NCBI GenBank assembly: GCA_965178125.1
Contig: OZ237754.1
Location: forward strand, 930,001-994,000
Source of the DNA: Bilabrum cf. latius
Lineage: Eukaryota
DNA length: 64,000 bases
Direction of reading: 5' to 3'
Shown here piece after piece: positions 1 to 61,365 of the stretch (the first letter of the stretch is position 1; each line of letters opens with the position of its first letter). The notes under the pieces are model-generated. The model searched no databases. It was not told where the DNA came from and saw only the letters and a list, made by a program, of their open reading frames with translations. The translations under genes were made by a program, and so were the position numbers.

Positions 1-2175
1 AGGCTAAACAATGAACGCAAGCGCATATTTGCCGAATTCTTAGAGGATCACAAATTACCCAAGGATAGCATCAAGAAACTAGGATTTGCTTGTTTATACG
101 ATGGTAGCATTTAGGGTACTGCAAAACAAATTGGAATCGAGGATCTTCAAGAGCTCACTCACAGATGCAAACAAAACTACGATTTATTTGTTAAAGCCAA
201 ACGGGAGTTTGCTGAAATCATGCAGCATGTAAAACAAATAATGGGTTCTGATTGGGAGTTGTTACCTTGTAATCCCGGTAAAGAAAATACTGATAGAGCC
301 GATGTAGGCAAACTTTCAAGTTTCTTTCAGCACATTGAACGGTAGATAACCGAGCATATTGCTTTCATTCTGAATGGTAAGTTTAAGTGCAAGGTGGCTG
401 ATTATTAGTACGATGGCGTGTTTTTGCGTGATGTTTAGAGCAAAACGGTAAACACATGGATTCCAGCTATCGAACAGTTCATCTATGAAAAGACAGGTTT
501 CCGAGTAAAACTGGAAACAAAACGAATGGAAAACTATCAAGTGGATGCTATTTTAGAATCCGATCAAGAAGCACCTGTACCCAAAGAGGTTTAGGATTAC
601 TTGGATGAAAAAGAACAGCAGGTAATTAAGCATATTGAAAGTAACAATCCTTTTGATCCGTTCTTTCATAATTCGATGGATACAGAACGTGTTCCGATAA
701 AACTACATAGCATCATGGATTACAGTAAATTAAACAAGTTACGATAGTAGTATTTCGAGAACTTTTGTGTAAAGATAGAAAATCCTGCGATGTTTGTACG
801 TGTTTTTCCAGAATCAGGAGATGCTGTAACTATCAATCGCCAAAATCTGTTAGTTAGTTTTGAGAACTTACGGCATGGCAATAAAAACCAACCTTGGATT
901 ACCGAATGCTGGTTAAAATCAGCCTCTATCAAAACCTACACGAAAACTACGTTTGTACCATACACTATCAATCCGCCACCTAACCACATGGTAGAAAACA
1001 AATTCAACATGTTTAAGGGATTCATGCATTCAGTAACACCACCTGATAACTTCAAGATGGATCAAACCAAAATCCAGCCGATTCTAGATCACTTGCACGA
1101 TATTTGGTGTGGTGGTGATTAGATGTGTTACAAGTATATTCTTGATTGGATGGCATCGATTGCTCAAACACCATGGAAAAAATCCTTGGTGGCTGTTGTT
1201 TTGGTTTCAATCAGAGAGGGTGCAGGTAAGAATTCAATCATGGAGTTTTTGAAAGAACATGTGTTTGGCAATTAGTACATTCGTGATGTGAGTAACATTA
1301 ATGATTTAACCAGATAGTTTAACATGGACGGAATGAAAACCATCTTTACAGTTTGCAATGAGATTGGATCACAGGGTGGTGCTTACCGAAATGCAGATTC
1401 CTTAAAGGATATGATTACTCGCAAAACGCAGCGGATTGAAACCAAAGGAGTAGATCCAATTCAAATGAGCTGTTTTAATAATTTTATGCTCACATCACAG
1501 TATTGGAAATGGGTCGCCAAGATTTCCAGTAGTGATCGCAGGTACTTTTGTTTAGATGCAGATAACAAACGATGTAACGATGTTGATTATTTCACTAATC
1601 TGTTTAAGTTTTTAACTCCTGAATCAGGCAAACATTTTTGGTATTACCTGTTATCCCGTGATCTTTCAACAGTAAACCTAAGAAATATTCCAATGACTGA
1701 TTTAAAGCGTGATATGGCATCCTTGAGCTATGATCCATTCATTAAAACGCTGATTGAATTAGAAAATTAGAGAGTTGATGGAGAAGATCGATATACGGCT
1801 CAAGAGTTAATGCTGCTATACAATCATGTAAATGAAAAGGATAGCATAAAATCTACCAGATCGTTTAGTAAACAATTCAAGAAATGGAGCAACGATTTCT
1901 TTAAGGTTTGCTAGATTGGTAAAACACGAACTAGGGGGTTCTTAATTACACCCGAGGGCAACCTTGAATTGATCAGGTAGGTGTTAAAAGATCCTGTTTG
2001 GTATTTTCCTGATGCCCCTGAAAATGAATATGAAGAACTCGAGCCTAAATATGATGATAGAGAGGAATCCAAGCAATCAGAGCCTGTTACCGTTATGGTT
2101 AAACCTAAGATTCAGGTAAAATCTAAAGTTCGAAAAGTGTATTCTAAGCTACCAAAGGATATCTGTTTGATTTAA
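1..2175 (+). CDS. TVpol (PolA-like primase-polymerase) fused to a superfamily 3 (D5-like) helicase, 5' partial, >724 aa with TAG read as sense
   Basis: Frame +1 is open from base 1 to TAA 2173-2175 with 13 in-frame TAGs (112, 343, 406, 436, 592, 745, 748, 1120, 1273, 1315, 1768, 1912, 1978) and no TAA/TGA. PolA-like motifs KKLGFACLYDGS, LSSFFQHIE and YQYDGVFL. Helicase Walker A SIREGAGKN, Walker B TVCNE, motif C NNFMLTS, then SSDRRYF. Confidence 0.85.
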
Positions 2176-2210
2176 AAATCAAATAATATTTGATTTAGTT
2201 CAGAGGGATC

Positions 2211-2474
2211 GAACATTTTTGAACATTTGAGAACATTTTAATGTTCCTTACTTTGATACGGATTTTATTTGTTTTATATAGGGTAGAACATTAAGAACAT
2301 TTTTTAACTATATATATAAAAAAAAACGATTTCCACACATTTTTGATTTTCAAAAATGGTGAAAATAACGTTTTCTACAAATCAAACCCACCCTCAAAAA
2401 CGCTCATTTTTTTTACTTGATCATCGTAGGGAATTTCCGTACGAAATCCGAAGAACATTAAAATGAGCGTTTTT
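2211..2474. repeat. GAACATT direct repeats plus a 15-bp inverted repeat in the element's AT-rich spacer
   Basis: GAACATT at 2211, 2221, 2231, 2286, 2295 and 2453, with an inverted copy at 2240-2246. AAAAACGCTCATTTT (2396-2410) pairs with AAAATGAGCGTTTTT (2460-2474). Confidence 0.75.
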
Positions 2475-3010
2475 ACGAAATAGAAATAATGATCAGGCTT
2501 CTGATCTAAAATTCAAGGATGCAATCAATCAAGAATACGCCAAGGTAAAGCATATTGAATCCTAGAAGGAGTTTGCACTTGCAATCAAGGAATCCCCATA
2601 CAAATCTGCACTGTTTCGGGCGAGAAAAGCGGGTAAAGTAATATCAGAGGATCTTTACCTATGCATAAAGCAGATGGGATTCAAACAGAAAGGATTAAAT
2701 CATTAACCATTAAATTTTCACGCATTTTAAAACCCAAATATTTCCCTGTATGAGTACACAGAGAGCGTGATTTTAGCGAGTATCTCTGTATTAATTTAAA
2801 TGCACTTAATACGGAATAAATCTTAGAAATCATGAAATCGTTTGATCGTGGTTTGGGGGGAAAATTGATCCGTGTTCACCCTATTTGTCGAGGCATGGTA
2901 AGAGGGGGGATTCGTTTTCGGACAACAATAGGTTTTCTTTGCAAAAAGAGGACCTCTGAAAAGCATTCCTCTAAAAATTGATTTAGAGGTATCTGATCAA
3001 AGTAGATAAA

Positions 3011-4264
3011 ATGGAAGAAACACGAAAACTAACTGAATGGATTAGGGTGGGTTACTCGGGGTTGAGTTCGAAAACCATCAACAATAAGCTGGGCACGGCT
3101 CGTAACTCGATTGTGCCTTTCTTGGAGCAGCATGGTTTGAGCCTAGAGCACCCGATCCCCAAGGGTGCAGATGAGAAGCGGTACTACGAGCTGCTTCGAA
3201 CTTTCGCTGAAACGCGCCCAAGGAAATCCACATGCCCCACTAAGAGCACTAGCCACTCCCGGTAGGTGATAATCTAGAGGGAGGTGCAGAGCATGAGTTC
3301 GATCCTGAAGCAGTACATGGCAACTCACGGAGGATCGGATGAGCAGGTGCAGATGATGGGGATGGTGAGCAAGGTGAGTTATGATAAGGCAAAGGAGGCG
3401 AGTGTGGCAAAAAACACGGTACTCAAACCCGCACCGCCGATTTCCTTGAAGTTGGCAGTGGAGCGATTCGCAGCCAAATCGGTGGCGAGTGTGGATCAGC
3501 CGTGGATGTACTGCCTGATGTATGCTATCCTGCATGTAGCCCCCTTCCGAGCCAAGGTGCTGTAGGCAACCACGATCAATGGGGATGGCTTGAGTAACAT
3601 TAGCACTGCTGATAGGGTTTGGAACATTGCGGTGGGCACGGACAAGGGCAAGAGTTCGGGTGATAAGGAGGAGCGTGTGGTGACGATCTCGGCACGGATG
3701 GCGGAGTTGCTGGAACGGCACTACAAGGCAGGTGATCATTTGATTCCTCTCACGGTTAGCCACAAGAGGCGGGTGAAGGAGTTTGGAGCAACCATGAAGG
3801 GGATTAGTATGGCATTGGTGGGTGTGGAGGTGAGTGCATCGGTGTGGCGAGAGATAGCCTGTACCAATCACTACAACTAGCCCAGCCCCCTGACCGACGT
3901 GCAGTTGAAGCACGTGGCATCGATCATGGGGCATTCGGTAGGCACCTCGCTCACGTACAAATCGTACTCGATCGGTGCGGATTAGGTGATTCCGTGTGGG
4001 TTGCTGGCATCCCCCGAGCCAGAGCCCAAGCCCAAGCTCAAGCCCAAACTCAAGCCCAAGCTCAAGCTCAAGCTCAAGCTCAAGCTCAAGCTCAAGCTCA
4101 AGCCCAAGCCAGTGATTCGATTGAAGTCCAAGATCAAGCCAGTGATTCGATTGAAGCCAAAGGCGCAGCTGGTGGTGGGAACGGGTGCTGGTGTGCTGAG
4201 TGGGTTGAGTGAGGAGCAGATGCGTGTGGCACTGGCAGCCTTGAAGGCAATGAAAGCAATGTAA
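3011..4264 (+). CDS. Tyrosine recombinase/integrase, 417 aa, with a Lys-rich C-terminal tail
   Basis: Four track ORFs join in one frame through TAGs at 3263, 3275, 3563, 3878 and 3983, ending at TAA. Catalytic-type motifs occur in the expected order: APFR, TDKGK, SASVWR, VASIMGHSVGTSLTYKSY. Confidence 0.85.
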
Positions 4265-4394
4265 ACAAACTAAATGAATAAAACAAAACGAAGGGCCCTC
4301 ATCTATGGTAGTGATACCATGGGTGTTGTGCCCTTTTTTTTGGCCTCAGAATTTAGTATCTAACCGAATAAACGAAACATGCTCTAGAGATAAA

Positions 4395-4904
4395 TCACCC
4401 ATGGCGAGGGTGGGGGCAATCCACGAAGGTAGCCATCATATCTTTCTTCTGCAACTTTGCCCTGAACACAGCAATGGAGCAACTCTCCTTATCCTTCAAG
4501 AACTTCTACAACCGCCGAAACTAGGCTCGGGTTCGATCGCTCTTGATGAACTTGGGGAGCTCATCCATCTCGTACTTCTCTAGGGTGCGGTGATCCCGCA
4601 AGAAGGGCTTTAAATCCTGCCACTTGCTCCACGCCACCTCCTCCTCCTCGATCGGCGGCAACGCCCAAGTTACCCGCTTGGTGCCCTTGCGGCTCATCCA
4701 GAACCGCCGCCCCAACCCGAGCTCCTCCAGCAGCACCCGCCGCTCCTTTACATCCCGAGGCACTCCCTCCTGCTCACCCTCTTCCTGCACATCTCCCTCC
4801 AGCAAGAACCCCGTAGCATCACCATCCAACCAGTGGCGGATGGCAAGAGGGCACTTGAGAGGAGGCACAGGTGCAGGTCGAGCGCAGCAGCCCAAAAAAC
4901 ACAT
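4395..4904 (-). CDS. Hypothetical element protein (~169 aa; alternative start at 4943)
   Basis: Track ORF 4521-4943 extends through two TAGs to TGA at 4395-4397. Starts MCFLGCC. No recognisable domain. Confidence 0.5.
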
Positions 4905-4939
4905 CAGATCCCCAAACAGGAAAGGGGGCAGCGATGGGA

Positions 4940-5788
4940 TCATTCGAAGCCCCCCACCAGTTTTCCCGAGGTGGGATCACGGCGGCGGTGCTTCTTGGAT
5001 GGGCGCCCACGAGAGGGGGCGCGTTTGGGCTTGGGTGAATCTGGATCCACCACAGCCACCTCCTCATCGCTCTCACTCTCGACGATGGTGTGCTTGGGTT
5101 TGCGCTTCGTGGCACGCCCCCTTGATGGCTTGGGCTTGGGCTTGGGCTGCGGCTCCTCCTCTTCGGATTCCCCCACGATGTCGGGCACGAAATCCTCTGG
5201 GCGGCGGCTGCTGTTGCTGCGGTTGGATACCACAGAGAGGGCTAGATCGTCGATGGCAACCTTGATCTGATCCACACGGGGGTTCTTCACGGCCTTGACC
5301 ACCTCTTGGATGATGCGTAGTTGCTCCCGTAGCTTGGAGGCATCGCCCTTGTGGCGGGTAAGGGTGTGGTAATCTCCCTCGAGATCCTGCTTGTCGCTCT
5401 CGTTGAGGCTCATGCCCTTGATCTTGTCGGAGAACTTGGTGAGATCGTTGAGGTGCTCGGCGAACACATCCCTTCTTTGGAAGCGCTTAGCGATGGTTTT
5501 GATCTCCTTATCCCGATCGGTGAGGCGCTTGCGCATGCTGTCCTCCTCGTTGGCCATCATTTGCAGCAGCTGCAGCCGAATGGGTTTGGGCACAGCGAAC
5601 AGAGCTTGTCCCAGAAGGTGTAGTGCCTGATCCTTGATGTGTGCCATAGCCGATTCCTGCACACGTTGGAGAGTGGGCGCGAGCTTCTGGGCGAGCCAGA
5701 AGGCACCAGCAGCCATGGCGCTGATGCCCGAGGAGTTGAGCAGCGCGGGAAACCCCTCCCCAGAAACGAAGAGTGAAGCCACGTACAT
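4940..5788 (-). CDS. Hypothetical element protein (~282 aa): hydrophobic N-terminus, coiled coil, acidic/basic tail
   Basis: Long open frame ending at TGA. Heptad-like central region (LREQLRIIQEVVKAVK) and a PKPKPKP/KKHRRR tail. Start position uncertain. Confidence 0.6.
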   Translation of the reverse strand: MYVASLFVSGEGFPALLNSSGISAMAAGAFWLAQKLAPTLQRVQESAMAHIKDQALHLLGQALFAVPKPIRLQLLQMMANEEDSMRKRLTDRDKEIKTIAKRFQRRDVFAEHLNDLTKFSDKIKGMSLNESDKQDLEGDYHTLTRHKGDASKLREQLRIIQEVVKAVKNPRVDQIKVAIDDLALSVVSNRSNSSRRPEDFVPDIVGESEEEEPQPKPKPKPSRGRATKRKPKHTIVESESDEEVAVVDPDSPKPKRAPSRGRPSKKHRRRDPTSGKLVGGFE

Positions 5789-5928
5789 GCTGTGATGGAA
5801 GGTGGGAAAGGGTATGGATGGATAGATAACGAGCAAAAATTGTTGGGGCAGCCAAAGGTAGGAGAGCAAAGTAGGGGTGCGTGCAGCTCGATCTAGCCAT
5901 AGGGCGGCAGGATTGCACCATTCAAAAC

Positions 5929-6159
5929 TTACATGAAATTGATGATAGCTGAAACGCCTAGCCCGGCAGGCAGCATTTTGGCTCCATTGGGTATGAATCG
6001 GAGAAGCCAATACACCACGCTGCCGATCGAGGCAGTGCTCCATAGCGCCGTAACAACCCTTTCTTCATCGAGTAGTTCGGCGTACATGGGGGTAAAAGTC
6101 TGGAACATTGCAACTGGCCGCGGGGTATCCTCGAACTGGGTAACGCCGGTGCCGACCAT
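5929..6159 (-). CDS. Small putative membrane protein (~76 aa)
   Basis: ATG 6159 to TAA 5929. Two hydrophobic segments (VVTALWSTASIGSVVYWLL; MLPAGLGVSAIINFM). Confidence 0.45.
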   Translation of the reverse strand: MVGTGVTQFEDTPRPVAMFQTFTPMYAELLDEERVVTALWSTASIGSVVYWLLRFIPNGAKMLPAGLGVSAIINFM

Positions 6160-6177
6160 GCGAGAAATGGCGCGGGG

Positions 6178-6264
6178 GACAGGCGTGAGTCCGTTGCGAC
6201 AGGCGTGAATCCGTTGCGACAGGCTCGTATCGCAACCGAAATCTGGTTTTCTCATGCGACAGGC
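6178..6264. repeat. 20-bp tandem repeat between divergent element ORFs
   Basis: GACAGGCGTGA(G/A)TCCGTTGC at 6178 and 6198, a partial copy at 6218-6224, and TGCGACAGGC again at 6255-6264. Confidence 0.75.
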
Positions 6265-6339
6265 AGCAGTACCAAGGGACGGAGGCAACTTGCAGTATCC
6301 TTTCCCGCCTTTGTTTGAAAGATAATAGTGTAATAAAGC

Positions 6340-7089
6340 ATGGATGCAGCAGGCGATGGTGAGAAAGCAGTGGCAACAGCAGGGGATACCAGTGCAGTTG
6401 CTCTGCCTCCCAAGCACCCAGCAGGGGCTTCTAGCAAGAAGCAGCCATCCGCCGCCATCGGTGCACCAGTGGATAGTGGCACAGATAGTTACGATGAGTT
6501 TATCGGGCAGTTGCACCGCGGGATTTCACGCGAAGGAGCAGGAGAGGCGCCCACTGCCATGGCGCCAAGCAGAGCAGCGCAACCCTCGATTGAGGGGGGG
6601 CAGCCTTTAGCGGCAACCGCGGGGGAGGAATCAGCAAAGGAACATGCTTCTGAAGCAGATCCTTCGATCAGTGATCATGTTGCATTGCCCCGAGAGGCAG
6701 CAAGTGGAGCGGGGGCGGGCGCAGCTGCACTCGCTGCCTCACATCGATCTCGAGAGCGTGGCAAACCTAAGGTAAAGGTAACAAGGGCAAGGAGTAAGCG
6801 AGGTGCTGTATTACAATGGGGTTTCACTGAGGCGGTAATGATTGTGCATGCCCTGCGCTTCGGCTCTCCGATGGTGGACGGGTGGCTGCCAGAGCATGCG
6901 CCTGGCGATCAAACCATGGAGCCTGAATTGGATCGGAGGAGGATGCACAAGCAATTAGATCGGTTGCTTGATGGTTTGAACCTCTATATTGGCGAGGCAG
7001 CAGCGGTGCCTACCAGCGATCCCGCAGTGGTGGATGATCAGGAGATTCCAAATGCGATGGACGCAGAGAGCTTGGGTAGGATTGAATGA
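6340..7089 (+). CDS. Hypothetical element protein, 249 aa
   Basis: ATG to TGA open frame with an Ala-rich disordered N-half and a more ordered C-half. No recognisable domain. Confidence 0.5.
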   Translation: MDAAGDGEKAVATAGDTSAVALPPKHPAGASSKKQPSAAIGAPVDSGTDSYDEFIGQLHRGISREGAGEAPTAMAPSRAAQPSIEGGQPLAATAGEESAKEHASEADPSISDHVALPREAASGAGAGAAALAASHRSRERGKPKVKVTRARSKRGAVLQWGFTEAVMIVHALRFGSPMVDGWLPEHAPGDQTMEPELDRRRMHKQLDRLLDGLNLYIGEAAAVPTSDPAVVDDQEIPNAMDAESLGRIE

Positions 7090-7193
7090 ATGAACGAGCA
7101 GAATTTTGTTATCAATCCATCACTCGATCCGAAACCCTGCCAAGTACGACTGCCAATCAGCGAATCAGTGTGGCAGCACGGCGCCAAAGCCAA

Positions 7194-7616
7194 TCACAGC
7201 TCCTCAATGATGGCGGGGGGATCTTCCTCGCTTGGATCAGCAGCCATTCCCCAGCTGCGCTTTGGAACTTTAGGTACATCGCGCTTGATCACGGTACTGG
7301 GTTCCAGAACGGCGTTGAGGATGGCGGTAATGCACATCGGCTTGGGCTTTCGCGCGGGTAGCGTTTGCAGCCACAGCGAGAAGGTAGTTTCTCCGCCGAG
7401 CTCTTCGTACTTATCAACTAGATCTTGGTACGAATCAATGCCGTGGGTGTGCAGCGCCTTGAACAGCTTGCCCTTCATGCCTCCGCGTAGGCAATCGATT
7501 GCATTGAGCGGTGGCGGATCGCTTGTGCTGTACCGCTGCACCTTGGTAGCGAGTACCCCAGTGCATGCGAATGTTGAAGCGATCACAAGCAGGAAACTAA
7601 TGCCCCGAGAAATCAT
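7194..7616 (-). CDS. Possible BAF (barrier-to-autointegration factor)-like protein, 140 aa
   Basis: LFKALHTHGIDSYQDLVDKYEELGGETTFSLWLQTL resembles by eye the BAF pattern ([36 protein letters not shown]). Hydrophobic N-terminus. Not confirmed by any search. Confidence 0.4.
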   Translation of the reverse strand: MISRGISFLLVIASTFACTGVLATKVQRYSTSDPPPLNAIDCLRGGMKGKLFKALHTHGIDSYQDLVDKYEELGGETTFSLWLQTLPARKPKPMCITAILNAVLEPSTVIKRDVPKVPKRSWGMAADPSEEDPPAIIEEL

Positions 7617-7933
7617 TCTTGCTGATTAATTTGTGCGGTAAACGGCGGTGCGGGATGAGCGAACTCACAGAGAACCTTCCCCAGATCGGCGCTCCCCTCC
7701 CGCGTGGGGACCCCGCAGAATAATATGGAGACCCCCAAATTTCTCTCCTCTGCAAGAGGAATAGAACCCGAGATGTGAAACGTAGCAGTGTAACTCAGTG
7801 CGTAATTTTTGGCAGTTGAAAATTTCACCTGCAAAAAAAATGATTTTTCAGCAACTTAAATTTCCACCCTCTACCCGTTTTATGGAAAGAATTACTTATA
7901 ACAAAAGAAAAATGTACATAAAAAATACCCTAC

Positions 7934-7998
7934 TCTCACACACCACATACCAGGGGGACCTCCAATTTGGAGGTCCCCCTGGTATGTGGTGTGTGAGA
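7934..7998. repeat. 65-nt palindrome (two perfect 32-bp arms around a central T) at the element terminus
   Basis: TCTCACACACCACATACCAGGGGGACCTCCAA-T-TTGGAGGTCCCCCTGGTATGTGGTGTGTGAGA; every base pair was checked by hand. Confidence 0.97.
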
Positions 7999-9530
7999 CC
8001 AGGTCCGATCGCGCGGATGTTGCCAGCGCCCCAGCCAGTAGTCTTGACATAGACGGCTCCGTAGATATCAATGAAGGCAGGCACAATACCAATCTTGAAC
8101 TTGACTCGCCGGACGAAGGACTTAGGGATGATAGTCGAGGGCTGGATCTTGTTCAGCTCTTCGTCGTCTTTGGCTACCTGCACGTCAAGCCCTAGGAGGG
8201 CCCCTGCAAATAGGCTCACTGCGGTCACCGGATAGCAGAGGGGGAAGACGCCGGCACTGAATAGCTATGAGTGCAACTAAATGCGACGAAACGAACCGAT
8301 CTTCATGGGCAAAATGACTTAGCTCACGCTCCACAGACTCCAGCTTCCACCAGTTCAGCACCATTTCGAACTTCAAGTTGGCACCCAGGTAGGCGTAGCA
8401 GTTCTCGCATCTGACAAGGGTTCCAATCATGTACAAAGGATCTCCATTCACCGGTTCACGGTTGTATGTGTCGAAATTCCAATTGACCAATGACCAGTCG
8501 TGCACGTACCCAACAGTCAACCAGAGATCGAAGGACGTGACGGCTTCAGCGATCAATTCCGCGGTCGTCTTGATTTTGGCGATGACGGTGTTTGCGGTCT
8601 AGACAACTGACGTAACAGCATTAGCGACGGCCTTGAATGGGTTTCCCCAAAGCCTCCGACTTGCTCGTCCGGATGGCGTGTTGCGAAGTTTTTGGGATGC
8701 AAGCCCGAGCCGACGAGCAGCTTCATGGAAAGCCTCGGTGTCGTTACCCCGGAAAGCCTTTTGCATGCCGATGATTGCAGACTTGATTTCATCTGCAGCA
8801 ATAGCAAGGAAATTACGAGAATGGTAAATGCAATTGAAATTGAATAATGCGGCGCTGTGACGATTGTGAACTTCAAGCAAACCGCGCTGCAGCAGCCAGC
8901 CTGCCGGCAACGCGTTGGCAACGAAGGGCTTTTCTTACTCTCATACAGTCCCGGTGTCCTGGAGACATGAGCACGCATGTTGCTGAAACAGCTCTCGAAA
9001 GTTGTTGGCCTTGCTCGAACGGTCAGTGCTGGAGTACCGTTGGAATCGGTGTCGTACTCGAGCCATGGACGGTCGACTACCTCGAAGTAGAACGGAGCCA
9101 CGTCTCCTTTCCCATTGACGCACCCCCATTGTTCAGATCCCACAATAATTGAACCAATAAACAGGCGCTTCTCGAGCTGGGAGGCGCTGGGACCGAGGAT
9201 TGTGATCTCGTGCTTCGCGGAACACGAAACCGAGATGACCTTTGGCCACTCGTCAAGGACCTCCACGTGATGCTGCACCGTGGCATCATAAGTAAGACGC
9301 ACATTTCCTCCGAATGCGTCGACCTTGTCCATGTTGTAGACGAATCTGTTGCCGTGGGCGAGGTGCTCCTTTACTGGCGGGAGAGGGTGCTCGAACAAGC
9401 TCGACGCAGGGTCACCCGACGGTAATGCAGCTGCGATATGGCAGTAACACAAACAAACAATAGCGATAGCCGAGACAGCGATCGCATGTGGCATGGAAAC
9501 CACCAAGAATATGGATGTTTCACCTGCCAT
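7999..9530 (-). pseudogene. Host secreted-protein gene, 5' part, interrupted by the element
   Basis: Signal peptide (MPHAIAVSAIAIVCLCYCHIAAA), GT-AG introns at about 8793-8938 and 8219-8327, one in-frame TAG (8599) and a CENCYAY motif. The reading frame runs (..GNIRAIGPG) straight into the palindrome without a natural stop. Confidence 0.65.
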
Positions 9531-11093
9531 GCTCGAGGTTCCGACTCGGAGCGAGCACCAGTTGCTGCCCCCAGGGTGGGGCCAGGATCATCATGCGCAA
9601 TCACTTGTCACGCGGCGTCCGGCAGCTTCCGCGCAAACCGGTGCGCTTACCTGCTTCTTCAGTTGCCGCCCGCCCTCCTGAATCCATTAGTAATACGACT
9701 ATTATAACTTTCGACACCCGAGAGGACTGTTCTGGCCGAGGCAGTCTTGATTCGGACCGATCAGTCACCTCACGAGTTGCGACCACCAGTCGCAATTGCA
9801 CCTAACACCAACACAAAGCACGCATTCACCACTACTCCACAATGTACAGTTGAGAGCCGACATACGCACGATTCGCTTGCGCTTATCCGTGATTTAAGGT
9901 GATGTATGGCCTATGACCGGCCCAGAATGCCACAGCCTGAGGTTTGTTCGGCCGGTTTTCTGCTTTGGGTGTTAGTAGCACCGGCACCTACTTATTGCAT
10001 CGGCAGCACAACCATGCATCGCTATGCTATAAGCGCGGCACCATTATGCAACACGTTGGCCAGTCCCTGATCAGACCTGGACCTCTACCACGCGCCCATC
10101 GACACATTGGCCAAACTTGGTCAGTCTCTGGCCTGGCGTATTGCCCAAACACTCATGGGTGCCCCCAACTCGTATCTTAAAAGCCATTGACCAAATTTTC
10201 TAGTAGACGCGAGCGTAGACCTCGTGTTGTGTCCTGCAGGGCAGCTCCGAAGCTCGAGCTGCGAAGAGGACAGTGCCGCGCGTACATGAAGCATTGCTAT
10301 GAGGACCATTTCGCTGCCCTAGTACCAGACCTGCCCCCACCCCCCTTTTCTCACCCCATATATATCCGACCCATTGATCCTCGTACTGCCGAGCTCTTTC
10401 TTGTGTGGTGCCGTCCTGCCACGTCTACCAGTGTGCCAGATAGGACACCCGTCGCCTGCCAGCATCCACTTTTGCACTTCAACTTTCTGCCCTTCACACT
10501 GCCTGGCACCTGGCTTGTTCCTGCAACCATCAATACCCAGGCTCAAGCCCCCGCTGAGCAGTATCTCCGCATTCCTTTCCCACTGGCAGCCTAACGCCGT
10601 GGGCCAACGGCCACTTCCCTTTCACGCCCTCAAGGCCCTGAGTCGAGGGCACAGGCCCCGCCCAGTGTCCAGCGAGCCAATTCGGTCACTGAGACATCGT
10701 GCCCATCCTAGCAACCCGCTAGATAAAGCGCACAGCGCGGCGCCGAACACTCCCACCTCCTCCCCCCCCAACTGGCAGCGCTCCCTTCTCCTTCAAGCCT
10801 CAGCCTAGAGTCCCGTGGTCTCAGCAGTGGCGGCGGTGTGGTCAGAGATGGGATGCGTGAATGGCATCTCATAGAATCCCATGGATTTTATCATCGGTCT
10901 TGGTGTGGTCGCACTGGCATTTGAAAGGCAGACAATCTCAACGGACATCTGTTGCGCGGCGACGGCCGTGCCGGGCGATGCTGCGTAGTTCCGCAAAACC
11001 GCTGGAGCTTGCGGGTGCTCATTTGGGCATTCAACCAATAGGCCACTGCCCTTGCGTTGCATATAGCTGCACATAAAGGTGTACAAAGAAGGA

Positions 11094-14000
11094 ATGGCTT
11101 CTCGGTTCAATGCTGGCGGCCGAGCTCGTAGTCTACCGGAATCACCCAAGGTGGGCCCAGAGTCCGGCCCGCACGCAGCCCAAGCCAAACAAATTCTATT
11201 GAGCCTGGAACAATCCAAAAAGCAAGTCGAAAGGGCAAGCAAGATACATGCTGTCAAGAGCAACTCAGTTCGCTTTTTCCGAGATGCGATCGAGGAGATG
11301 CTAGAAAGCAAGTTGATCACGGAAGACCGATTCGGCGAGCTCAGCAGAGCTGACGACACGAAGTTGGACCAAGTAGTATCCACAAAGGAGTTAATGAAGC
11401 TTGCAGTGCACTGGCGAATCACCAGTGGGCCCCAAGACTTCTGGAGCAAGAATCGCAAGCGCGAAGACCTGATCGAGCAGCTGCGAGACTTTGAAGCAGA
11501 GAGGCACCTGAAAGTAGAAGAAGGAGAACGCGAAGCAGAGAAACAAGTGCTGTCAAAGCTAGATGCCCAAAGGTGAGACTTTTCCCAAAGCTAACTTCTC
11601 CGGGCGGCTTTCACAACTATCGGTTGAGGAGGCCCAGGGAGCTGAGCTCCCGGCAGGAAGCGAGCACAGTCGCGCAGGGTGCCAAATATGCTGCTACAAA
11701 CCCATGCAAGAGAAGCTATGAATCTCCGAAACGGTCATACATTACCTCCTTGTCCCCGATTATCGCAGCAAAAGCAAGGCTGGGAGCCGCCCCGATTCGC
11801 CGCAGACCCGGCACGTTCACATTGCCAAGAAGCGTCGTGCTAGCCTCAGTAGACTGCAAGCAAGCGTAAGGATGAAGCGCTACAGTGGTGATAAGTTTGG
11901 ATCGCAGGGCGAGTACACCGGCGGCAGGCTGTACGCAGCCAGAGCAGACGGTCGGATTTCTCCGCCGGGCCACGCCGCGTCCACGAGCCAGATCCCATTC
12001 AAGGAGAACGCCACCGCTTCTGACGGCGACAAGAATGGCACGCAAGATTCAATAGGTATCCTGGCGCAATAGGCGGCAGATTTGCTGTTGGGCTCGAGCA
12101 CCTCGCCTCTCTCCACTGATAAGGGTGAAGATCTCATGGGCCTCGCTGCCAGTGGGCAGGTGCAATAGTAGACGGGAGGGCCTGGCGCTGCGCTGGCACC
12201 GAACCAATAGGATGGCATGGCTGCGGGTGAATAGCACGCGGGTGAGCCGCCCAGCTTCATGGCATCGTTCATTGACGGCAACGTCCCTGCAGACGACATG
12301 CAGCTCGGGCCGCGGGCCGTCGAGGGTCGCCGGGCGCTCGTCATTTCGCTTGGGCTTGCCGACGTTCTTGATCCAAACGCCGGACTGGGCGGGAGCCGCC
12401 TCCCTGGCAGGTTTGCACACCTGCGCATAGGGACAGCGGGTCACGACGGACATGATCAGGACTGGCAGGGGTAGTCTGGTCGCACTGCAAGCGCGGCAAC
12501 CGCGGAGTACGACATGCGGAGCGATTAGGCAGGTAGGAATAGGTCACTGGAACTAGAGCCGTAGTCAGACATGCGGCCCACGAGCCCAGCCCTCAGCCGG
12601 TCGCTCATGGGCGGACGACTGAGCGGCAGCAACAATGCCTGGGGGCAGCAGCCCGCGCCCGAGACGGCAGGGGATGAGAAAGCGACTGAGAGCCACGAGA
12701 GCAAACAGGAAGTGACTGAGAGCCACGAGAGCAAACAGACGGAGACGCAAAGCGAGGCAGAGGGAGACATGCCGCTGGAAGGGCCAGGAGCTGCCCGTGC
12801 AGCCGGTGATAGGGAAAAACAGCAACCAAGCCAGCAACAAGGTCGGTAGAGCCAATCAGAGGCAGAGACAGAGGCAGAGGCAGAGGCAGAGGCAGAGGGA
12901 GAGTGCCCTCCCAACTCCCCACCCACTGGCGGCGCTCGCGACACAGACTCGGGCGCTTTGCCGTCGTGGCCCGGGTTTGCCCTTGCCACGTCACCGATCG
13001 CGACTCGGGAGAATCTGTTCCGTCTTGCCGAGTCAAAGGTTTCCGCGGGTCACGCTCCCTCCGCGCGCCAGGCCCTCATGGGGCGGCGGGTCATCACCTG
13101 CGGGGAGCTGCTAGAGGCGGCCAGGTATGAAGAGGAGGAGGAGGAGGTGTGGAGGTACAGGCCGGCTGCGTGGAGGGATCTGGGGCGAAAGCTCGGCAGG
13201 GAGCAGGGGGAGGGAGCAGCGAGCAAGGACGGCAGCAGCGGTGTTGGCGTTGGCGCTAGTGCTCAGGGCGCGAGGAAGTCCACCGAGGAGGAGGAGCTGG
13301 AGCTCCTGAGACACTACTCCTAGGGAACAAATGCGGCCCCGGTGAGCACCCCGGGCGGAGACCCACCCCTCGCGAGGAACAGTGGACGATCTCTCTCGCC
13401 CTCGGGGTCTCCCCAACGAGCCCTCGTCCAGTGCAAGGTGTCCATGTATGCATGCGGCCTAGAGAGGGCCCGGCCCAAGACACTGCTGCTGGAGCCCAGT
13501 CCAGTGCCCGTGGAGCAGGCCATCCAGCGGGCCAGGAGGGACGTGCCGTGGAGGACCTACGACCACCTGGAGCTGATCAAGCGCAAGTGGAGGCGGGGCG
13601 AGGGCTCCTTGGAGGAGCGGGCGAGGGAGGAGCAGGAGCGCATCAGGGAGGAGGGCAGGAGGAGGAGGGAGAGAGCGGCGGGGGCAAGGGGGGGGCTTGC
13701 AGATGGGGAGGGGGAGGGGGAGGGGCACGGCTTTAGCGGCGGCGGCGGTGACGGACGGAGCGGGGGCGGAGAGTCTAGGGGCGGGACCGTCCTGATGCAC
13801 TCTTCACACCAGGAACAGCTCATGCCCAAGGGCATCGCTGGTGGGACGTCGTGGGACGGCGGATCTAGCCGAGGCAGCCGTGGGTCCGCCATGCGGGCCG
13901 GGGCTAGATCCATGATTTTGCCGGGAGCCAGCGGCGGGCGCGGCAGCCGTGGCAGCGACAGTCAGAGGCCGAGCACGCGTGGCCTGCAGGGAGACGCGCC

Positions 14001-43000: not shown

Positions 43001-46000
43001 ATGGATGAAAAGGGTGCTAGAGCCCTGCAGCAGGAGCTGCGCAAGCATCGGGACGAAGCCACTGGGCACCGAAAAGCAAACGAGGAGCTAAAGCGCCGCC
43101 TGCATGCGGAAGAAATCCGTCGAAAAGATCTTCGAGAGACTGCACGGGCGGAACAAGAGCGCCTGGAGGCCGAGATAACCCAGCTGCGTGAGCGATTGTC
43201 GAAAGCAGAGAGCCGCGCCTCGGAGCTTGCCCCAAGGCTCCAGGCCGAGAAACGGGAGGCAAACAAATTGCGAGCCGCGCTGGATTCAGCAAATCGATCG
43301 GGAGGGGCTGCTCGCGGCCTTCGGCCGACGACCCGAGCCGCGGCTCCCGTGGATGCCGGTGCTCGCACCCGCATGGTGTCGGTGCTGGACCAGGCCGCAG
43401 ATGCGGCGCGTGAATGGGAGCGCGCCCGGGAGCGGCTGCGCGAGTGGCAAGCCAGCGCGGCGCGGGCGCTCCATGCCGTTGCAGAGGAGGCTGGCCGCCT
43501 CTCCGGGGCCGTGCACGAGGCCGCCCAGGGCCCCGGGCGGGAGGTGCTCCGGGACATGCTGCGGGCGGGTGAGGAGGCGGGGCGGGCGGGCGCAGAGGCC
43601 GTGGTCGGGCTGGGGGGCGAGGGTGCATCGCATGCAGGTGCGGGGGTGCAGCTGGGTCGGCTGGCCCGGCAGGCCATGGCCGTGATAAAGGTGCAGGGGG
43701 GTGCAAGGGGCAAGGGCAGGGACAAGGGCAGGGACAAGGGCAGGGGAAGGGGTAATAGGAGTGGACCGAGGGGTGGCCATGGTCGTGGAAGAGGAGACTC
43801 CAAGCCGACAGCAGCCTCAGCCACTGCCGAGTCCTCGTTGCCTTCCGGCGGCTGGTCCGAGATCGAGGAGCTGGCGCGGGAGGCAACTGCGGGTGCACTG
43901 CACGCAGGTATCGACTCGGAGCCGCTAGATAGGGCCCGGGAGCAGGCGGCAGCTCGGCTGATGGGGCTGGCCGAAGACGTGCGCTTGCTGTCGCAGGGCC
44001 CGGGGTCCGAGACCCGGTACAGGGCAGCACTGGCGGCGGTGCTCGCCCTGGCCGCGCGGCAGCAGGGGCTGCTGCGGAGGTCGATGCGAGGGGACAAGGG
44101 TGCATCGCATGCAGGTGCTGCTGCTGGGAAGGGCAAGGCACCGCGTGCTACGGCCAGTCCGACGGGCCTGCCGCCCACTCCGGACTGGGTAAAGGGGCCC
44201 GTGCAGCGAGGGAACAAGGGGAGTGCTGGGAGCCATGGGGGCCGCACTGGGGGTGGTCAAAGGGGCGCCGTGCGAGGCGGCCCGTCCGCGTCTGGCACCC
44301 CGGACCGCTCCCCGCTCAAACCAGCGTCCCAGTCGGGGCGACGGGGGCGTGGGCGCGGCCGGGGCTCTTCCAGCCGACAGCAGTACCATCCGGATCGGAG
44401 CGGCGTGGAATCAGAATCGAGAGGCACCCCCCCTCGCTCCGATGCAGATGCAGATGCAGATGCAGGTGCAGATGGAGAGGGAGACAAGCGCGATGAGAAG
44501 GATGATTCCATTAAAAAGGGTGAGGAACACAGCAGGGCACCCGGGCGCGACCGCGGTACAGTCTCATCCTCGCCTGCCGCTCGAGCCGAGAAGTTCCGTG
44601 CGCGGGCTGGCAGCCCCCTGCGATCTGGAGGGAGGAACAGGAGGAGGATGAGGAGGCGGGGGAACACACGGCTGGAGCAAGGGGAAGGGGGCGAGCAGCC
44701 CAGCCCCAGCCCCAGCACTGCGGCACAGCCAGGCGCATCGCATGGTGGTGCAGGTCCCAAGGAGGCGTCCCCTCTGTCCCCGCCGTGGAAGAGACAGGCA
44801 CTCAAGGGCCCAGGGGGCAGGGAAACAGGAGCAGAGGGCGGGCCCGTGGCAGCCAGCCCCCCGCCTGTGCCCGGTACCGTGCAGCCCCCACCCCTACCAG
44901 AGACAGAGCCAAAGGCAGAGTCGAAGCGAGAGGCAGCAGCAAGGCAGCGCGCCACTCCCGGAGCGGCTGCCATCGGAGGAGGTCTCGGCTCCAAGGCGAC
45001 CGACGGCGGGGGCAAGGGCAAGGGCAAGGGTAAGGGTGCTCGCGCGGGGTTGCACTCGTCACGCAGTGCCGCAAATAGGCTCAATCCGGAGCGAGCCATG
45101 TCCCCCATGCGTACGGGTGCATTGCGTGGCAGTGCAGACTCGCTAGCCCGCAAGCCGTGGCAGAAGCACCGAGGGTACCACGGGGGCAGCGGCACCAGAG
45201 CACCTCCCACCGCGAGCGATGGTGCGGGCAGAGGCAGCGGCTGGGGGCAGGACCCGCTGGACCTAGGGTCGGGGCAGGCGGGTACGGTGGGTGGGATGGA
45301 GAGAGAGGTGGAAAATGAGAAGAGTGACGTTTCTGCTCGCGCAGGCACAGGCACAGGCACAGGCGGGCTGGCCCAGACGGCTCCAGCGAGGGTCTCTCCG
45401 CTCAAGGCTACGGGCCAGGGAACAAGCCAGGGAACAGGTGCAGAACGCGAGAGAGCCCGCGCAGTTCCCGCAGCGTCACCGCTCGGCTCGGCTGGTGCAT
45501 CGCACGGTGGTGCCCCCAGGGGAAGAGCCCCCGCCGAGGGGTCACCCGAAGCCATGTCCCCGATCTAGGCCGGGCCCCGGGGTAGCGGCGCATTCGGGGC
45601 CGAGAGCGGGGATATGCACCCATCGGGAGACCAAGCCTCCGGGGTCTCTGCCGATACAGCCAGGCCTGCCGGTCCTGGTGCCCATGCCAGCGGTGAGGGT
45701 GAGGGTGCTGGGGGTGGCTCTGTGTCGGGCATGCAGGGGCTGATGCCGGACGATCTGAGGGCGAGGCTCGAGGCGCGGCGGAGGCAGAAGAGCAAAGGGA
45801 AGGGGTAGGGGGTGGGGGTGGGGAAAGGAGGCAGCAGAGGGGCCTCGAGGGAGCCAAGGGCCCGTGCCAGTGGGGGGGCTGCTCCTGCAGCCAGGGAGGG
45901 TACGGCTGGTGCTGGTGCTGGTGCTGGTGTTGCCCGCGCGGGCCTGTCCATGGCGGAGAAACAGGCGCTGGCCAAGAGGCGGCGGCAGGAGGCGGAGCAG

Positions 46001-46156
46001 GCCAAGAAGGAAAGGGCACTGGCCAAGGCGGGGGCTAGAGGTGTGACGAATGGGGGCGCTGTGGGAGGGGTAAGGAGGCAGAGCAAAGGCAGGGGCAGGG
46101 GTAGGGGCAGGGGTGGCAGTGGGCTTGGTGGGACGAGAGGGGGGCGCAGGAGGTAA
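43001..46156 (+). CDS. Hypothetical protein (~1,051 aa): N-terminal coiled coil and long disordered region
   Basis: Three in-frame ORFs joined by TAGs at 45566 and 45806, ending at TAA. Confidence 0.7.
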
Positions 46157-58771: not shown

Positions 58772-58854
58772 GCATGTTTGCCCGAGCTGGTCTAAGGGGT
58801 TGTGTTAAGGTCGCAATGTATTCGTACTCGTGGGTTCGAATCCCACAGCATGCA
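58772..58854 (+). tRNA. trnL-AAG: tRNA-Leu, anticodon AAG
   Basis: Acceptor stem GCATGTT/AGCATGC-A, D arm with TGG, anticodon stem TTGTG/CGCAA around TT-AAG-GT, long variable arm, T loop GGTTCGAATCC, and a T-run terminator at ~58860. Confidence 0.92.
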
Positions 58855-59134
58855 CCGAATTTTTATTTTTATAATTGCTTCTCCCCCCCACCCTCGACTT
58901 TCTTTGTTACTCCTTGGCCTTTCCAATTTTGTGCTCGCTCTGGCATTGTGAACCCTTGCTTGCGACCTGCGTATCATCTAATCTGTTAGGTCGTTCGATT
59001 TTCAGATTTAGTTGACTGAGGCGGAGCCAGTTAGAAAGGTAAAGCCAGCAGGGTCGATATCTTTCTGCGTCAATCCCCCTGGCGATTCAGCGTATTTGTA
59101 CATCGCAAGAAAGATATAACCAAATACGCACAAT

Positions 59135-60934
59135 ATGTCCGGAATGGCGCGAGATGGGACCGGCAACAACGATGTCATCGATCTCGTGAGCGATGACGAC
59201 GCAGACTCTTGCTGGAGCGGCAGTAGCTCGAGCGTAAGCAAACAGGACGCGCTAGGCCGTCTTGGCATCGCTGCTGCAGGAGTTGCGCCCACAAGCAGCA
59301 TCCAGATGCAAGGTAGACACGGTGCGCGGTGGACTGGTAGGGCGAAAGCTGGGATGGAGGCCGCTACAAGCGGACCGGCTCGACCAGGTCCTGTGTTACC
59401 ACGAGCCTCCAGCGGCACGGTATCGGATTCAAATACGAGCAAATTGGAACCGGCAATCATTGCAAGTAGTTTGAACTGTGCTAGCGCTGCTTCTGCTGGC
59501 CAAAAACGCGGTAGGACCGAGCGGGCCGGTCGCGGCGAGTCGATAAAAAAGAGTGATGGAGACAGCATGAGGGCGAAGAGACGGCGGGGGGAGGCCGGTC
59601 GGAGGGTGTCAGTGGGTGGACATATGTGCGAATTATGTGGGAAGGTAATGAGCACGATGGCATACTTAAGGCGGCATGTTGCGGTGGTGCACCTGGGCGA
59701 GCGCAAGCACGAGTGCGCCTCGTGTGGCAAGGCATTCGGCGAGGCAGGCCATCTCAAGACGCACATGTCCGTGGTGCACCTGGGCGAGCGCAAGCACGAG
59801 TGCTCCGTGTGCGGCAAGGCATTCGGGCAGGCAAGCAGTCTCAAGACGCACATGTCCGTGGTGCACCTGGGCGAGCGCAAGCACGAGTGCTCCGTGTGCG
59901 GCAAGGCATTCGGGCAGGCAAGCAGTCTCAAGACGCACATGTCCGTGGTGCACCTGGGCGAGCGCAAGCAGGAGTGCTCCGTGTGCGGCAAGGCATTCGG
60001 CGAGGCAGGCCATCTCAGGAAGCACATGTCCGTGGTGCACCTGGGCTAGCGCAAGCACGAGTGCTCCGTGTGCGGCAAGGCATTCGGGCAGGCAAGCAAT
60101 CTCAAGACGCACATGTCCGTGGTGCACCTGGGCGAGCGCAAGCACGAGTGCTCCGTGTGCGGCAAGGCATTCGGCGAGGCAGGCAGTCTCAAGACGCACA
60201 TGTCCGTGGTGCATCTGGGCTAGCGCAAGCACGAGTGCTCCGTGTGCGGCAAGGCATTCGGCGAGGCAGGCAATCTCAGGAAGCACATGTCCGTGGTGCA
60301 CCTGGGCGAGCGCAAGCACGAGTGCTCCGTGTGCGGCAAGGCATTCGGCGAGGCAGGCAATCTCAGGAAGCACATGTCCGTGGTGCACCTGGGCGAGCGC
60401 AAGCACGAGTGCTCCGTGTGCGGCAAGGCATTCGGGCAGGCAAGCAGTCTCAAGACGCACATGTCCGTGGTGCACCTGGGCGAGCGCAAGCAGGAGTGCT
60501 CCGTGTGCGGCAAGGCATTCGGGCAGGCAAGCAATCTCAAGACGCACATGTCCGTGGTGCACCTGGGCGAGCGCAAGCACGAGTGCTCCGTGTGCGGCAA
60601 GGCATTCGGGCAGGCAGGCAATCTCAAGAAGCACATGTCCGTGGTGCACCTGGGCGAGCGCAAGCACGAGTGCTCCGTGTGCGGCAAGGCGTTTGGCAAG
60701 GCAAGCTACCTCACGAGGCACATGTCCGTGGTGCACCTGGGCGAGCGCAAGCACGAGTGCTCTGTGTGCGGCAAGGCATTCGGGCAGGCAAGCAATCTCA
60801 AGAAGCACATGTCCGTGGTGCACCTGGGTGAGCGCAAGCACGAGTGCTCCGTGTGCGGCAAGGCGTTCGGGCGGGCAGGTGATCTCCAACGACACCATAG
60901 CACTTGCTAGGCTGTTGGGACCTTGCCGAAGTAA
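59135..60934 (+). CDS. C2H2 zinc-finger array protein, 15 fingers (~599 aa)
   Basis: 87-bp tandem units encoding CSVCGKAFGxAxxLxxHMSVVHLGERKHE. In-frame TAGs at 60047, 60221 and 60908. Ends at TAA 60932. Confidence 0.92.
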
Positions 60935-61365
60935 TCACTTACTCTACTTGGCACCTCCCGGAAGTCGAAAGCGGGCGCTACTAGTATCATGAGATCACAC
61001 GTTGTACACAGCACCCTCGTCTCGCAGACAGTCACACATGGTTGTAGTTGGTTTCCTCCGAGAGCCCATTCTCAAAGTTACCAAAAAGAAAACTGGCGAA
61101 CGCTGCCCCTCAGCGCCCGAATAGCACGCGGCTTGATTGCCGCTCGAGTCTAATTGTGACCTCTCAACTTCCACATCCGCATGTGGTCGGTGATCCGATC
61201 CCCCCTGATCCGAGTCACTCGTCACACATGCCCAGCCCCCACCTGCCCGGCCTGTGCCTCCCCCTTCCTATCCGCCGCATCAACCCAATGACCCCACCAA
61301 TCATCTTCTCCTCCACTACTTCCTCCCTCGTTCCGGTGAACCGTCGTCCCCCCCTCCCTCTGCTC

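Follow-up and report, generated by a model that had tools for sequence, protein, structure and literature searches.

Our analysis of a 64,000-nucleotide (nt) stretch of the genome of Bilabrum cf. latius (assembly GCA_965178125.1, contig OZ237754.1, positions 930,001 to 994,000 of the forward strand; hereafter the window) concerns its first 8 kb, positions 1-8003, which on balance we take to be the right-hand part of an integrated mobile, virus-derived DNA element whose left part lies beyond the window start. The explanation we favour, with modest confidence, is that the element stems from a small eukaryotic double-stranded DNA virus of the Polinton-like-virus (PLV)/virophage kind (Preplasmiviricota), that it uses a host nuclear code with UAG read as glutamine and that it is a mosaic. 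Polinton-like virus or virophage is the most likely kind. At least 8.6 kb of the element is known, and it sits in a eukaryotic chromosome of 65% GC which is intron-poor yet has introns and which encodes long proteins of low complexity.

Stop-codon counts carry the recoding. The preliminary description of this DNA had proposed that a replicase, a recombinase and a third open reading frame (ORF) are intact only with TAG as a sense codon, and each of the three behaves in that way. The replicase frame (1-2175, plus strand, the 3' part of its gene; 724 codons, stop TAA, 37% GC) contains no TAA and no TGA, against 28-68 TAA plus TGA codons in each of the other five frames, and its 13 TAG codons fall within the range of 6-14 found in those frames. 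A frame that lacks TAA and TGA but has the usual number of TAG codons indicates strong selection against the former and none against the latter. The recombinase-like ORF (2978-4264, plus strand) is likewise free of TAA and TGA (0-29 in the other frames); its gene most likely starts at ATG 3011 and runs for 417 codons, including five TAG, to the stop TAA at 4262-4264. Neither gene has a frameshift, and standard-code gene callers break both into pieces. The third ORF (ORF B, 4395-4943, minus strand, two TAG) is open only with TAG as sense, has strong codon periodicity and is covered by RNA-like contigs.

The host reads TAG in the same way. Its ORFs for the DNA polymerase epsilon catalytic subunit (PolE; 2500 codons), a DUF1800/DUF1501 protein (2674 codons) and a patatin-domain protein contain 2, 17 and 10 TAG codons, respectively, have no in-frame TAA or TGA and all end in TGA, and a further host ORF (43001-46156) terminates in TAA. 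Contigs of the public sequencing run X7 extend this to spliced sequence: one splices out a host GT..AG intron (11571-11766), and across two of them the spliced host frame (11195-12851) is open and keeps nine in-frame TAG. For the meaning of the codon, the recombinase-like gene was aligned codon by codon with six metagenome relatives, giving 11 columns with TAG: three are TAG throughout, three have TAG in relatives where the window has CAA or CAG (Gln), three pair TAG with Glu or Asp and two with Gly or Ser. TAG in these columns is best read as glutamine, as the preliminary description had also supposed for the host code. TAA is evidently not a sense codon, because the replicase uses CAA 14 times and never TAA in frame, and six of six ORFs checked in low-GC relatives (36% GC) stop at TAA and contain no in-frame TAA, with 1-9 TAG and 4-11 CAA codons each. 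Element and host thus share one nuclear code, with UAG as sense (on the above reading, Gln) and UAA and UGA as stops. No tRNA-Gln(CUA) gene was found in the window, where the sole tRNA gene is a tRNA-Leu(AAG) at 58772-58856.

A HMMER search of 1.84 billion representative proteins with the recombinase-like protein returned just two, P0012 and P0013 (69 and 60 amino acids (aa), 70-75% identity), which end exactly before codons TAG185 and TAG290 of the window gene and so are standard-code fragments of relatives with the same TAG codons; their cluster also contains two full-length forms of 398 and 400 aa. The six metagenome contigs with the gene (65-70% protein identity) are TAG-recoded and have 36-38% GC throughout. 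Upstream of the gene, on the two contigs that reach far enough, lie a C5 DNA methyltransferase (PF00145, E 2.3e-5; phrog_757, E 9e-11) and an ORF with a GIY-YIG-like motif recognised by eye, both with in-frame TAG. Compared with the relative on contig L001, the window protein is identical at 225 of 332 residues, with pN 0.214 and pS 0.754 (saturated), and among 107 third-position differences that leave the amino acid unchanged, in 79 the window copy has GC in place of AT, and in 15 the reverse holds. The low pN relative to pS, together with this bias, shows the window copy to be a selected, GC-ameliorated member of a low-GC family.

These data bear directly on the contention that both genes are decaying pseudogenes whose TAGs are nonsense mutations. 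Fragmentation by standard-code callers, of which P0012 and P0013 are examples, is what such decay would look like; the absence of TAA and TGA from 724 plus 417 codons, the three TAG positions kept across copies 65-70% identical in protein, the pN far below pS and the presence of TAG in host housekeeping genes all contradict it. The TAGs are not accompanied by TAA, TGA or frameshifts, and decay is refuted by the stop-codon counts, TAG conservation and pN/pS, leaving it a practically negligible probability.

Two further features of this gene family were observed. On L001, a 450-nt direct repeat 3' of the recombinase-like gene (2378-3010) contains two near-identical 60-codon ORFs (2378-2560 and 2828-3010) and possibly represents the terminal repeats of these low-GC relatives. 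C-termini that are acidic and Pro-rich and then Lys/Pro-rich occur in the window recombinase-like protein (encoded at 4011-4153), its metagenome relatives (L001 2060-2160), the GIY-YIG-like ORF (L005 1630-1669) and an ORF of the transcribed region described below (ORF A, window 4990-5150, minus strand); these tails are of low complexity, resemble TonB linkers and were matched to TonB by NCBIfam.

The replicase could be followed beyond the window by means of P0004, a full-length protein of 863 aa encoded on a 12,257-bp contig and 99% identical to the window replicase, which places 139 replicase codons upstream of the window. In the window protein, residues 402-501 match the Pfam family DUF5906 (PF19263; E 2.4e-12, 47.9 bits where the curated cutoff is 27.6), which also matches P0004, and PHROG 'DNA primase' families match residues 304-628 (phrog_1156, E 1.3e-16). 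Walker A residues G407, G409 and K410 and the Walker B residue E454 are invariant in all nine aligned sequences (the window protein and eight database proteins); the residue preceding E454 is N, not D, as it is in one of the seven homologues other than copies. Judged from its sequence, the replicase carries a D5-type superfamily 3 (SF3) helicase domain. The helicase half of the 'TVpol-helicase' named in the preliminary description therefore stands by DUF5906, and the TVpol half is retained below as a candidate.

Likeness to other proteins is confined to this domain. The nearest non-self relative (P0005/P0021) has 46% identity over the helicase part only and possesses an AEP/PriCT-2 N-terminus; a tblastn search of phage sequences gave 209 records, all below 60% identity, with the 30 matches listed covering residue 376 onward only, and a scan of IMG/VR with the helicase alignment gave four loci of 28-31% identity without N-terminal likeness. 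D5-like helicases are a giant-virus hallmark, the nearest helicase relatives (P0021 and P0006) have AEP-PriCT2/D5_N architecture, and giant viruses often encode methyltransferases and GIY-YIG proteins, so that an endogenised giant-virus (Nucleocytoviricota) fragment with a hallmark D5 primase-helicase had to be considered. We regard it as very improbable: the replicase lacks the AEP/D5_N N-terminus of those relatives, the unit ends at 8000 and has a second copy on a 12-kb contig, the ESM Atlas taxa are Preplasmiviricota and the window contains no further giant-virus gene.

The replicase N-terminus (about 375 residues) is a candidate TV-Pol, a reasonable lead that draws on motifs found by eye and on ESM Atlas look-alikes. 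P0004 has a D-x-D strand at about aa 116, a motif B-like K-x-x-x-K...Y-D-G at about aa 162-176 and a motif C-like Y-D-G at about aa 277, spaced by about 50 and 110 aa; A-family polymerases show a similar motif order and spacing. Atlas look-alikes score 0.94, 0.92 and 0.91 and belong to unnamed viral clusters, the third assigned to Preplasmiviricota with D5_N on 31% of its members. Pfam and NCBIfam gave no match to this region. A phmmer search of the PDB with P0001 gave no hits, a metagenome scan with P0004 confirmed none of 88 pattern matches (of the six peptide patterns used, the four with a Q would overlook TAG) and a scan of prokaryote genomes confirmed none of 179.

The second gene fairly probably encodes a divergent tyrosine recombinase. 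Candidate catalytic residues picked out by eye (R180, S277-x-x-R280, H308 and Y316, spaced by 100, 28 and 8 aa) are invariant in the family alignments, and three Atlas look-alikes, each scoring 0.98, belong to clusters that are 100% viral, with Preplasmiviricota the commonest taxon; the third of these clusters has PF00589 on 16% of members. The protein ends in a low-complexity (EP)n(KP/KL)n tail encoded by a 6-nt repeat (4023-4109), to which the only NCBIfam matches, TonB-like ones, are confined. A word-index search found no relative among 8000 scored candidates, the KP/KL tail possibly having consumed words, and an IMG/VR scan with the recombinase alignment confirmed none of 338 pattern matches.

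The limits and copies of the unit were read from Logan contigs of four public runs (X1, X5, X7 and X8). One X5 contig follows the window at 7969-8000 and then enters more than 1 kb of GC-rich DNA absent from the window, and a contig found in X1 and X5 follows 7706-7963 and on its inner side continues into AT-rich DNA with the motif GAACAT, also absent from the window. A second context therefore exists for the terminal 300 nt or so (7706-8000), with AT-rich DNA on its inner and GC-rich DNA on its outer side; contig orientation being arbitrary, it represents either an inverted repeat at the element's other terminus or the place where a second copy ends. The right end of the unit lies at 8000-8003, in agreement with the end at 7998 first proposed for it: likeness to the other context stops at 8000, where a palindrome (7929-8003) has its outer edge. 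This palindrome, whose perfect stem spans 31 bp (-41.9 kcal/mol, z -12.3, none of 200 shuffles as good), makes up, together with an AT-rich stretch (7780-7928), most of a terminal segment at 7706-8003. In X1, variant letters at ten places in 1768-1986 correspond to the differences between P0004 and the window protein; the element thus exists in at least two copies or variants. Furthermore, contigs of X1 and X5 show an 89%-identical copy of 2408-2510 beyond the left edge of the window, 493 nt from base 1 and some 76 nt ahead of the replicase start codon, so that a 100-nt repeat flanks the replicase gene on both sides; between that gene and the next, the low-GC spacer (2176-2935, 30-37% GC) holds seven of the nine GAACATT matches in the window, all within 2211-2459. 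Contig depth in X1 (155-196 on 1-7735, 87-123 on the flank) is a hint only and does not give copy numbers. X5 has no cover on 8407-13076 and, among the pieces listed, none beyond the 8000 junction lies on the window before 13077, which is not evidence of absence. The data support 1-8000 being a discrete unit present more than once; nothing resembling 1-8003 occurs elsewhere in the window.

Between the recombinase-like gene and the terminal segment lie three transcribed genes, at 4366-7622. The runs X7 and X8, from two studies, were guessed to be RNA, and since contigs of both skip 5790-5932, a minus-strand GT..AG intron (GTAAGT..CACAG), their contigs are taken to be RNA-derived. Transcript T1 (4366-6171, minus strand; exons 6171-5933 and 5789-4366) contains, after splicing, ORF A, which stops at TGA 4940-4942, and ORF B (4943-4395), the two overlapping as ATGA. 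Divergent from T1, across a spacer with a 20-nt tandem repeat (6178-6224), is T2 (6283-7101, plus strand; ORF 6340-7089, 249 aa), and convergent with T2 is T3 (7095-7622, minus strand; ORF 7616-7194, 140 aa, with a hydrophobic N-terminus). Contig stops of the two studies lie 1-3 nt apart (4366/4367, 6283/6285 and 7101/7098), a weak hint that they are transcript ends. The products of ORF A, ORF B and the T2 and T3 ORFs have no family match in the profile libraries, and a PDB search with the T3 product and ORF B gave matches at E of 0.39 or above only. No X7 or X8 contig lies on 1-4200, which includes the replicase and recombinase genes, or on 7623-11194, blanks which are not evidence of silence.

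Stop/start overlaps of the form ATGA were observed twice in this region, at 4940-4943, where ORF A and ORF B lie in the same unspliced stretch and are both strongly codon-periodic, and at 7086-7089, where the ORF 6340-7089 overlaps an ATG at 7086. The former suggests a bicistronic mRNA, re-initiation or frameshifting in a eukaryote.

Neither these three genes, one of them spliced, nor the uneven base composition of the unit had figured in the preliminary description. From 30-39% over 1-3000, GC content rises to about 48-60% over 3000-12000 and to 63-71% over 12000-14000, and within the unit the replicase (37% GC, GC3 0.37) stands against a recombinase gene of 54% GC and GC3 0.69. The step from 36% to about 54% falls in the leader of the latter (2936-3010, plus strand), which is conserved with the metagenome relatives. 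A possible if doubtful explanation is that two elements are present, one of them a GC-richer module (about 2936-7700, some 4.7 kb long) nested in or abutting the other, a low-GC virus-like element (1-2935 plus 7706-8003). GC jumps at about 3000 and drops again past about 7750; 7706-7963 is, in X1 and X5, also preceded by AT-rich DNA with the GAACAT motif that clusters at 2211-2459, and nested PLV insertions marked by GC deviation are on record (PMC12220804). Against this, the closest relatives of the recombinase gene are themselves low in GC (36%) and TAG-recoded, so that the gene belongs by descent to a low-GC lineage; contigs of both DNA runs bridge 2408/2841-4009 with no other letters; and the second context of 7706-7963 is equally explained as the other terminus, an inverted repeat. 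ORF A, whose acidic and then PK-rich tail is like those of the recombinase-like protein and the GIY-YIG-like ORF, thereby shows a weak sign of itself belonging to the element family.

Several results weigh against a viral origin and against the identities proposed for its proteins. By the Pfam and PHROGs profiles, 1-8003 encodes no capsid, penton, packaging ATPase or protease, and the window as a whole has no gene for any of these either. A single virus genome would not ordinarily show the GC contrast seen between replicase and recombinase genes, and the T1-T3 genes, with host-like GC3 and in one case a spliceosomal intron, may be cellular. For the replicase N-terminus, aa 1-400 matched only itself among 2988 candidates, a PDB search gave only two cyclin matches at chance level (E 0.3-0.4), an IMG/VR scan with P0004 confirmed no relative among two pattern matches and single-sequence AlphaFold reached a mean pLDDT of 39.8, too low for a fold search. 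Iyer et al. (2008, PMC2579912) describe TV-Pol as having two conserved palm aspartates, a fingers motif RxxxK and a conserved arginine in a beta-hairpin; the fingers motif here is KxxxK. For the second gene, which the preliminary description had named a tyrosine recombinase outright, that name does not hold as an established one: PF00589 was not matched at E values up to 1, nor was any other Pfam, PHROG or NCBIfam family on the body of the protein; the PDB gave only eL29 matches on the low-complexity tail; hhalign of the six-sequence family with P1 Cre gave a probability of 0.14; mean pLDDT from the single sequence was 34.5, again too low for a fold search; and the HxxR motif has S in place of H. 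Lastly, the best DNA run, possibly the very source of the window, is not independent.

Some of these points would equally suit a capsid-less plasmid- or transposon-like element (Crypton-like or transpoviron-like) consisting of a primase-helicase and cargo in the host code and not a virus. The lack of structural genes in 1-8003, the known length of only about 8.6 kb with the other copy on a 12,257-bp contig, the host transcription of three genes, one of them spliced, and the absence from IMG/VR of a close relative of either gene all agree with it. It is nonetheless distinctly unlikely in our estimation, as the Atlas look-alikes of both proteins are viral clusters, the metagenome relatives carry a methyltransferase and a GIY-YIG-like ORF, a typical small-virus gene set, and the left part of the element, where capsid, penton and ATPase genes would lie, is beyond the window, so that the absence of capsid genes concerns 1-8003 only. 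Of the Polinton-like-virus or virophage first proposed, a discrete repeated unit with an SF3 helicase has held up, and its kind is the likeliest of those considered.

Should the element indeed be of PLV/virophage origin, the replicase N-terminus would be a primase-polymerase of the TV-Pol type, responsible for priming and copying the element, and the second gene product would be a tyrosine recombinase inserting a circular form by site-specific recombination. With 13 TAG codons in its replicase gene, the element would be untranslatable in standard-code cells; the confinement to a UAG=Gln host put forward in the preliminary description is likewise presumed. The GC-richer part (2936-7700), with the recombinase gene and three transcribed orphan genes, would be a long-resident or nested module expressed by the host. 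A bolder and rather unlikely version of this account has a lineage of small DNA viruses in the UAG=Gln-only code circulating and endogenised in a protist of 65% GC, whose GC-ameliorated module is transcribed and spliced by the host as a domesticated cassette, possibly a standing defence against giant viruses such as has been proposed for PLVs and virophages, with the replicase N-terminus and the integrase representing new divergent TV-Pol and Cre-like branches.

Three further reading frames were considered as genes of the unit and set aside: an antisense ORF (2876-3934, minus strand, 352 codons), which is a shadow of the recombinase frame; an ORF at 7648-8280 (plus strand, five TAG), which lacks codon periodicity and spans the element end; and a frame of 79 codons (2467-2706) that lacks a start codon and shows only a weak, chance-level Pfam match. 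An Rfam scan gave no matches. Beyond the right end, 8004-11000 has 53-55% GC as against 65% for the host and may be a further foreign insert adjoining the element; in it, two minus-strand ORFs (8553-9530 and 8185-8910) that match no family, with a start resembling a signal peptide, are probably one gene split by an intron or frameshift.

Elsewhere in the host DNA, a 24-nt in-frame motif encoding G-A-S-H-(G/A)-G-A-(G/A) occurs seven times, all on the plus strand, in three unrelated host ORFs: twice in PolE, four times in the ORF 43001-46156 and once in the patatin ORF (positions 34804, 37207, 43622, 44099, 44732, 45494 and 53279). The pattern resembles that of a short repeat which has entered coding sequence and is translated with it. 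The PolE ORF starts (31627) about 250 residues into the conserved protein, as we presume from yeast Pol2, and an upstream exon or intron is accordingly expected. A long tandem array of units of about 29 residues (...PNALPHTEHSCLRSPRCTTDMC...), open on both strands, occupies 59008-61035, a stretch of 55% GC near the tRNA-Leu(AAG) gene.

The recoding has consequences for how such viruses are found and understood. Since viruses must use the code of their host, recoding of an element is the mark of a virus and host that have been associated for long and exclusively, and of an obstacle to changing hosts. Metagenomes contain low-GC relatives in the same code, free or integrated, which standard-code pipelines break into fragments of 60-70 aa, and gene callers need a TAG-sense mode for eukaryotic viral contigs of this type. 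Columns of the recombinase family in which TAG alternates with CAR codons are a direct read-out of codon meaning, and the transcribed module within the element is a candidate case of viral gene domestication. An ochre-suppressor tRNA in virophages has been taken as a hint of recoded hosts (Paez-Espino et al., PMC6905037), and alternative codes are now tested in giant-virus catalogues (PMC13524828).

Among known systems, cluster C1 of the cryptophyte PLVs, in which TVpol-S3H is the commonest replicase and a tyrosine recombinase the commonest integrase (PMC12220804), is close in architecture: an N-terminal domain other than PolB is fused to an SF3 helicase beside a candidate Cre-like integrase. 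Like the cryptophyte PLVs, the present element sits in a protist chromosome as a few near-identical integrated copies with GC deviating from that of the host, whereas its UAG-sense genes, the lack of a capsid module in 1-8003, its GC mosaic and the three host-expressed genes inside it, one of them spliced, set it apart from them, and its TV-Pol and tyrosine recombinase (YREC) folds are candidates only. Sputnik and the Organic Lake virophage (OLV) likewise possess TVpol-S3H and a tyrosine recombinase (PMC3671162); the proposed replicase architecture is like theirs (V13 and OLV25 being TVpol-S3H, and Sputnik having an integrase), and GIY-YIG-type genes occur in the wider family. No sequence similarity to these virophages was detected in the collections searched, from which the virophage records sought were absent. 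With Cryptons (named in PMC12220804) the element has in common a candidate YR-type gene, few genes, no capsid seen and the possibility of introns. Unlike Cryptons, it has relatives of its recombinase-like gene on low-GC virus-like contigs. We know of no Cryptons with a primase-helicase.

With regard to the code, the combination of UAG=Gln with UAA kept as a stop is known from Iotanema spirale and is rare outside ciliates (PMC5304391); as in that species, the host genes and mRNA described here have in-frame TAG, with TAA and TGA as stops. The literature consulted, the supplementary tables of PMC12220804 and PMC10120064 aside, gave no description of a PLV or virophage recoded for UAG only. The principle of a recoded integrated virus is known from Streblomastix strix, the one comparable case found, whose endogenous PLV- and Maverick-like viruses use the host table with TAA and TAG as Gln (Bellas et al. 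2023, PMC10120064). In both organisms, integrated genes of small DNA viruses are written in the non-standard nuclear code of the host. Notwithstanding this likeness, the S. strix viruses read both UAA and UAG as Gln and have capsid genes as their marker, whereas in the present element only UAG is reassigned and UAA remains a stop, and it is this UAG-only code that the element adds to the known case.

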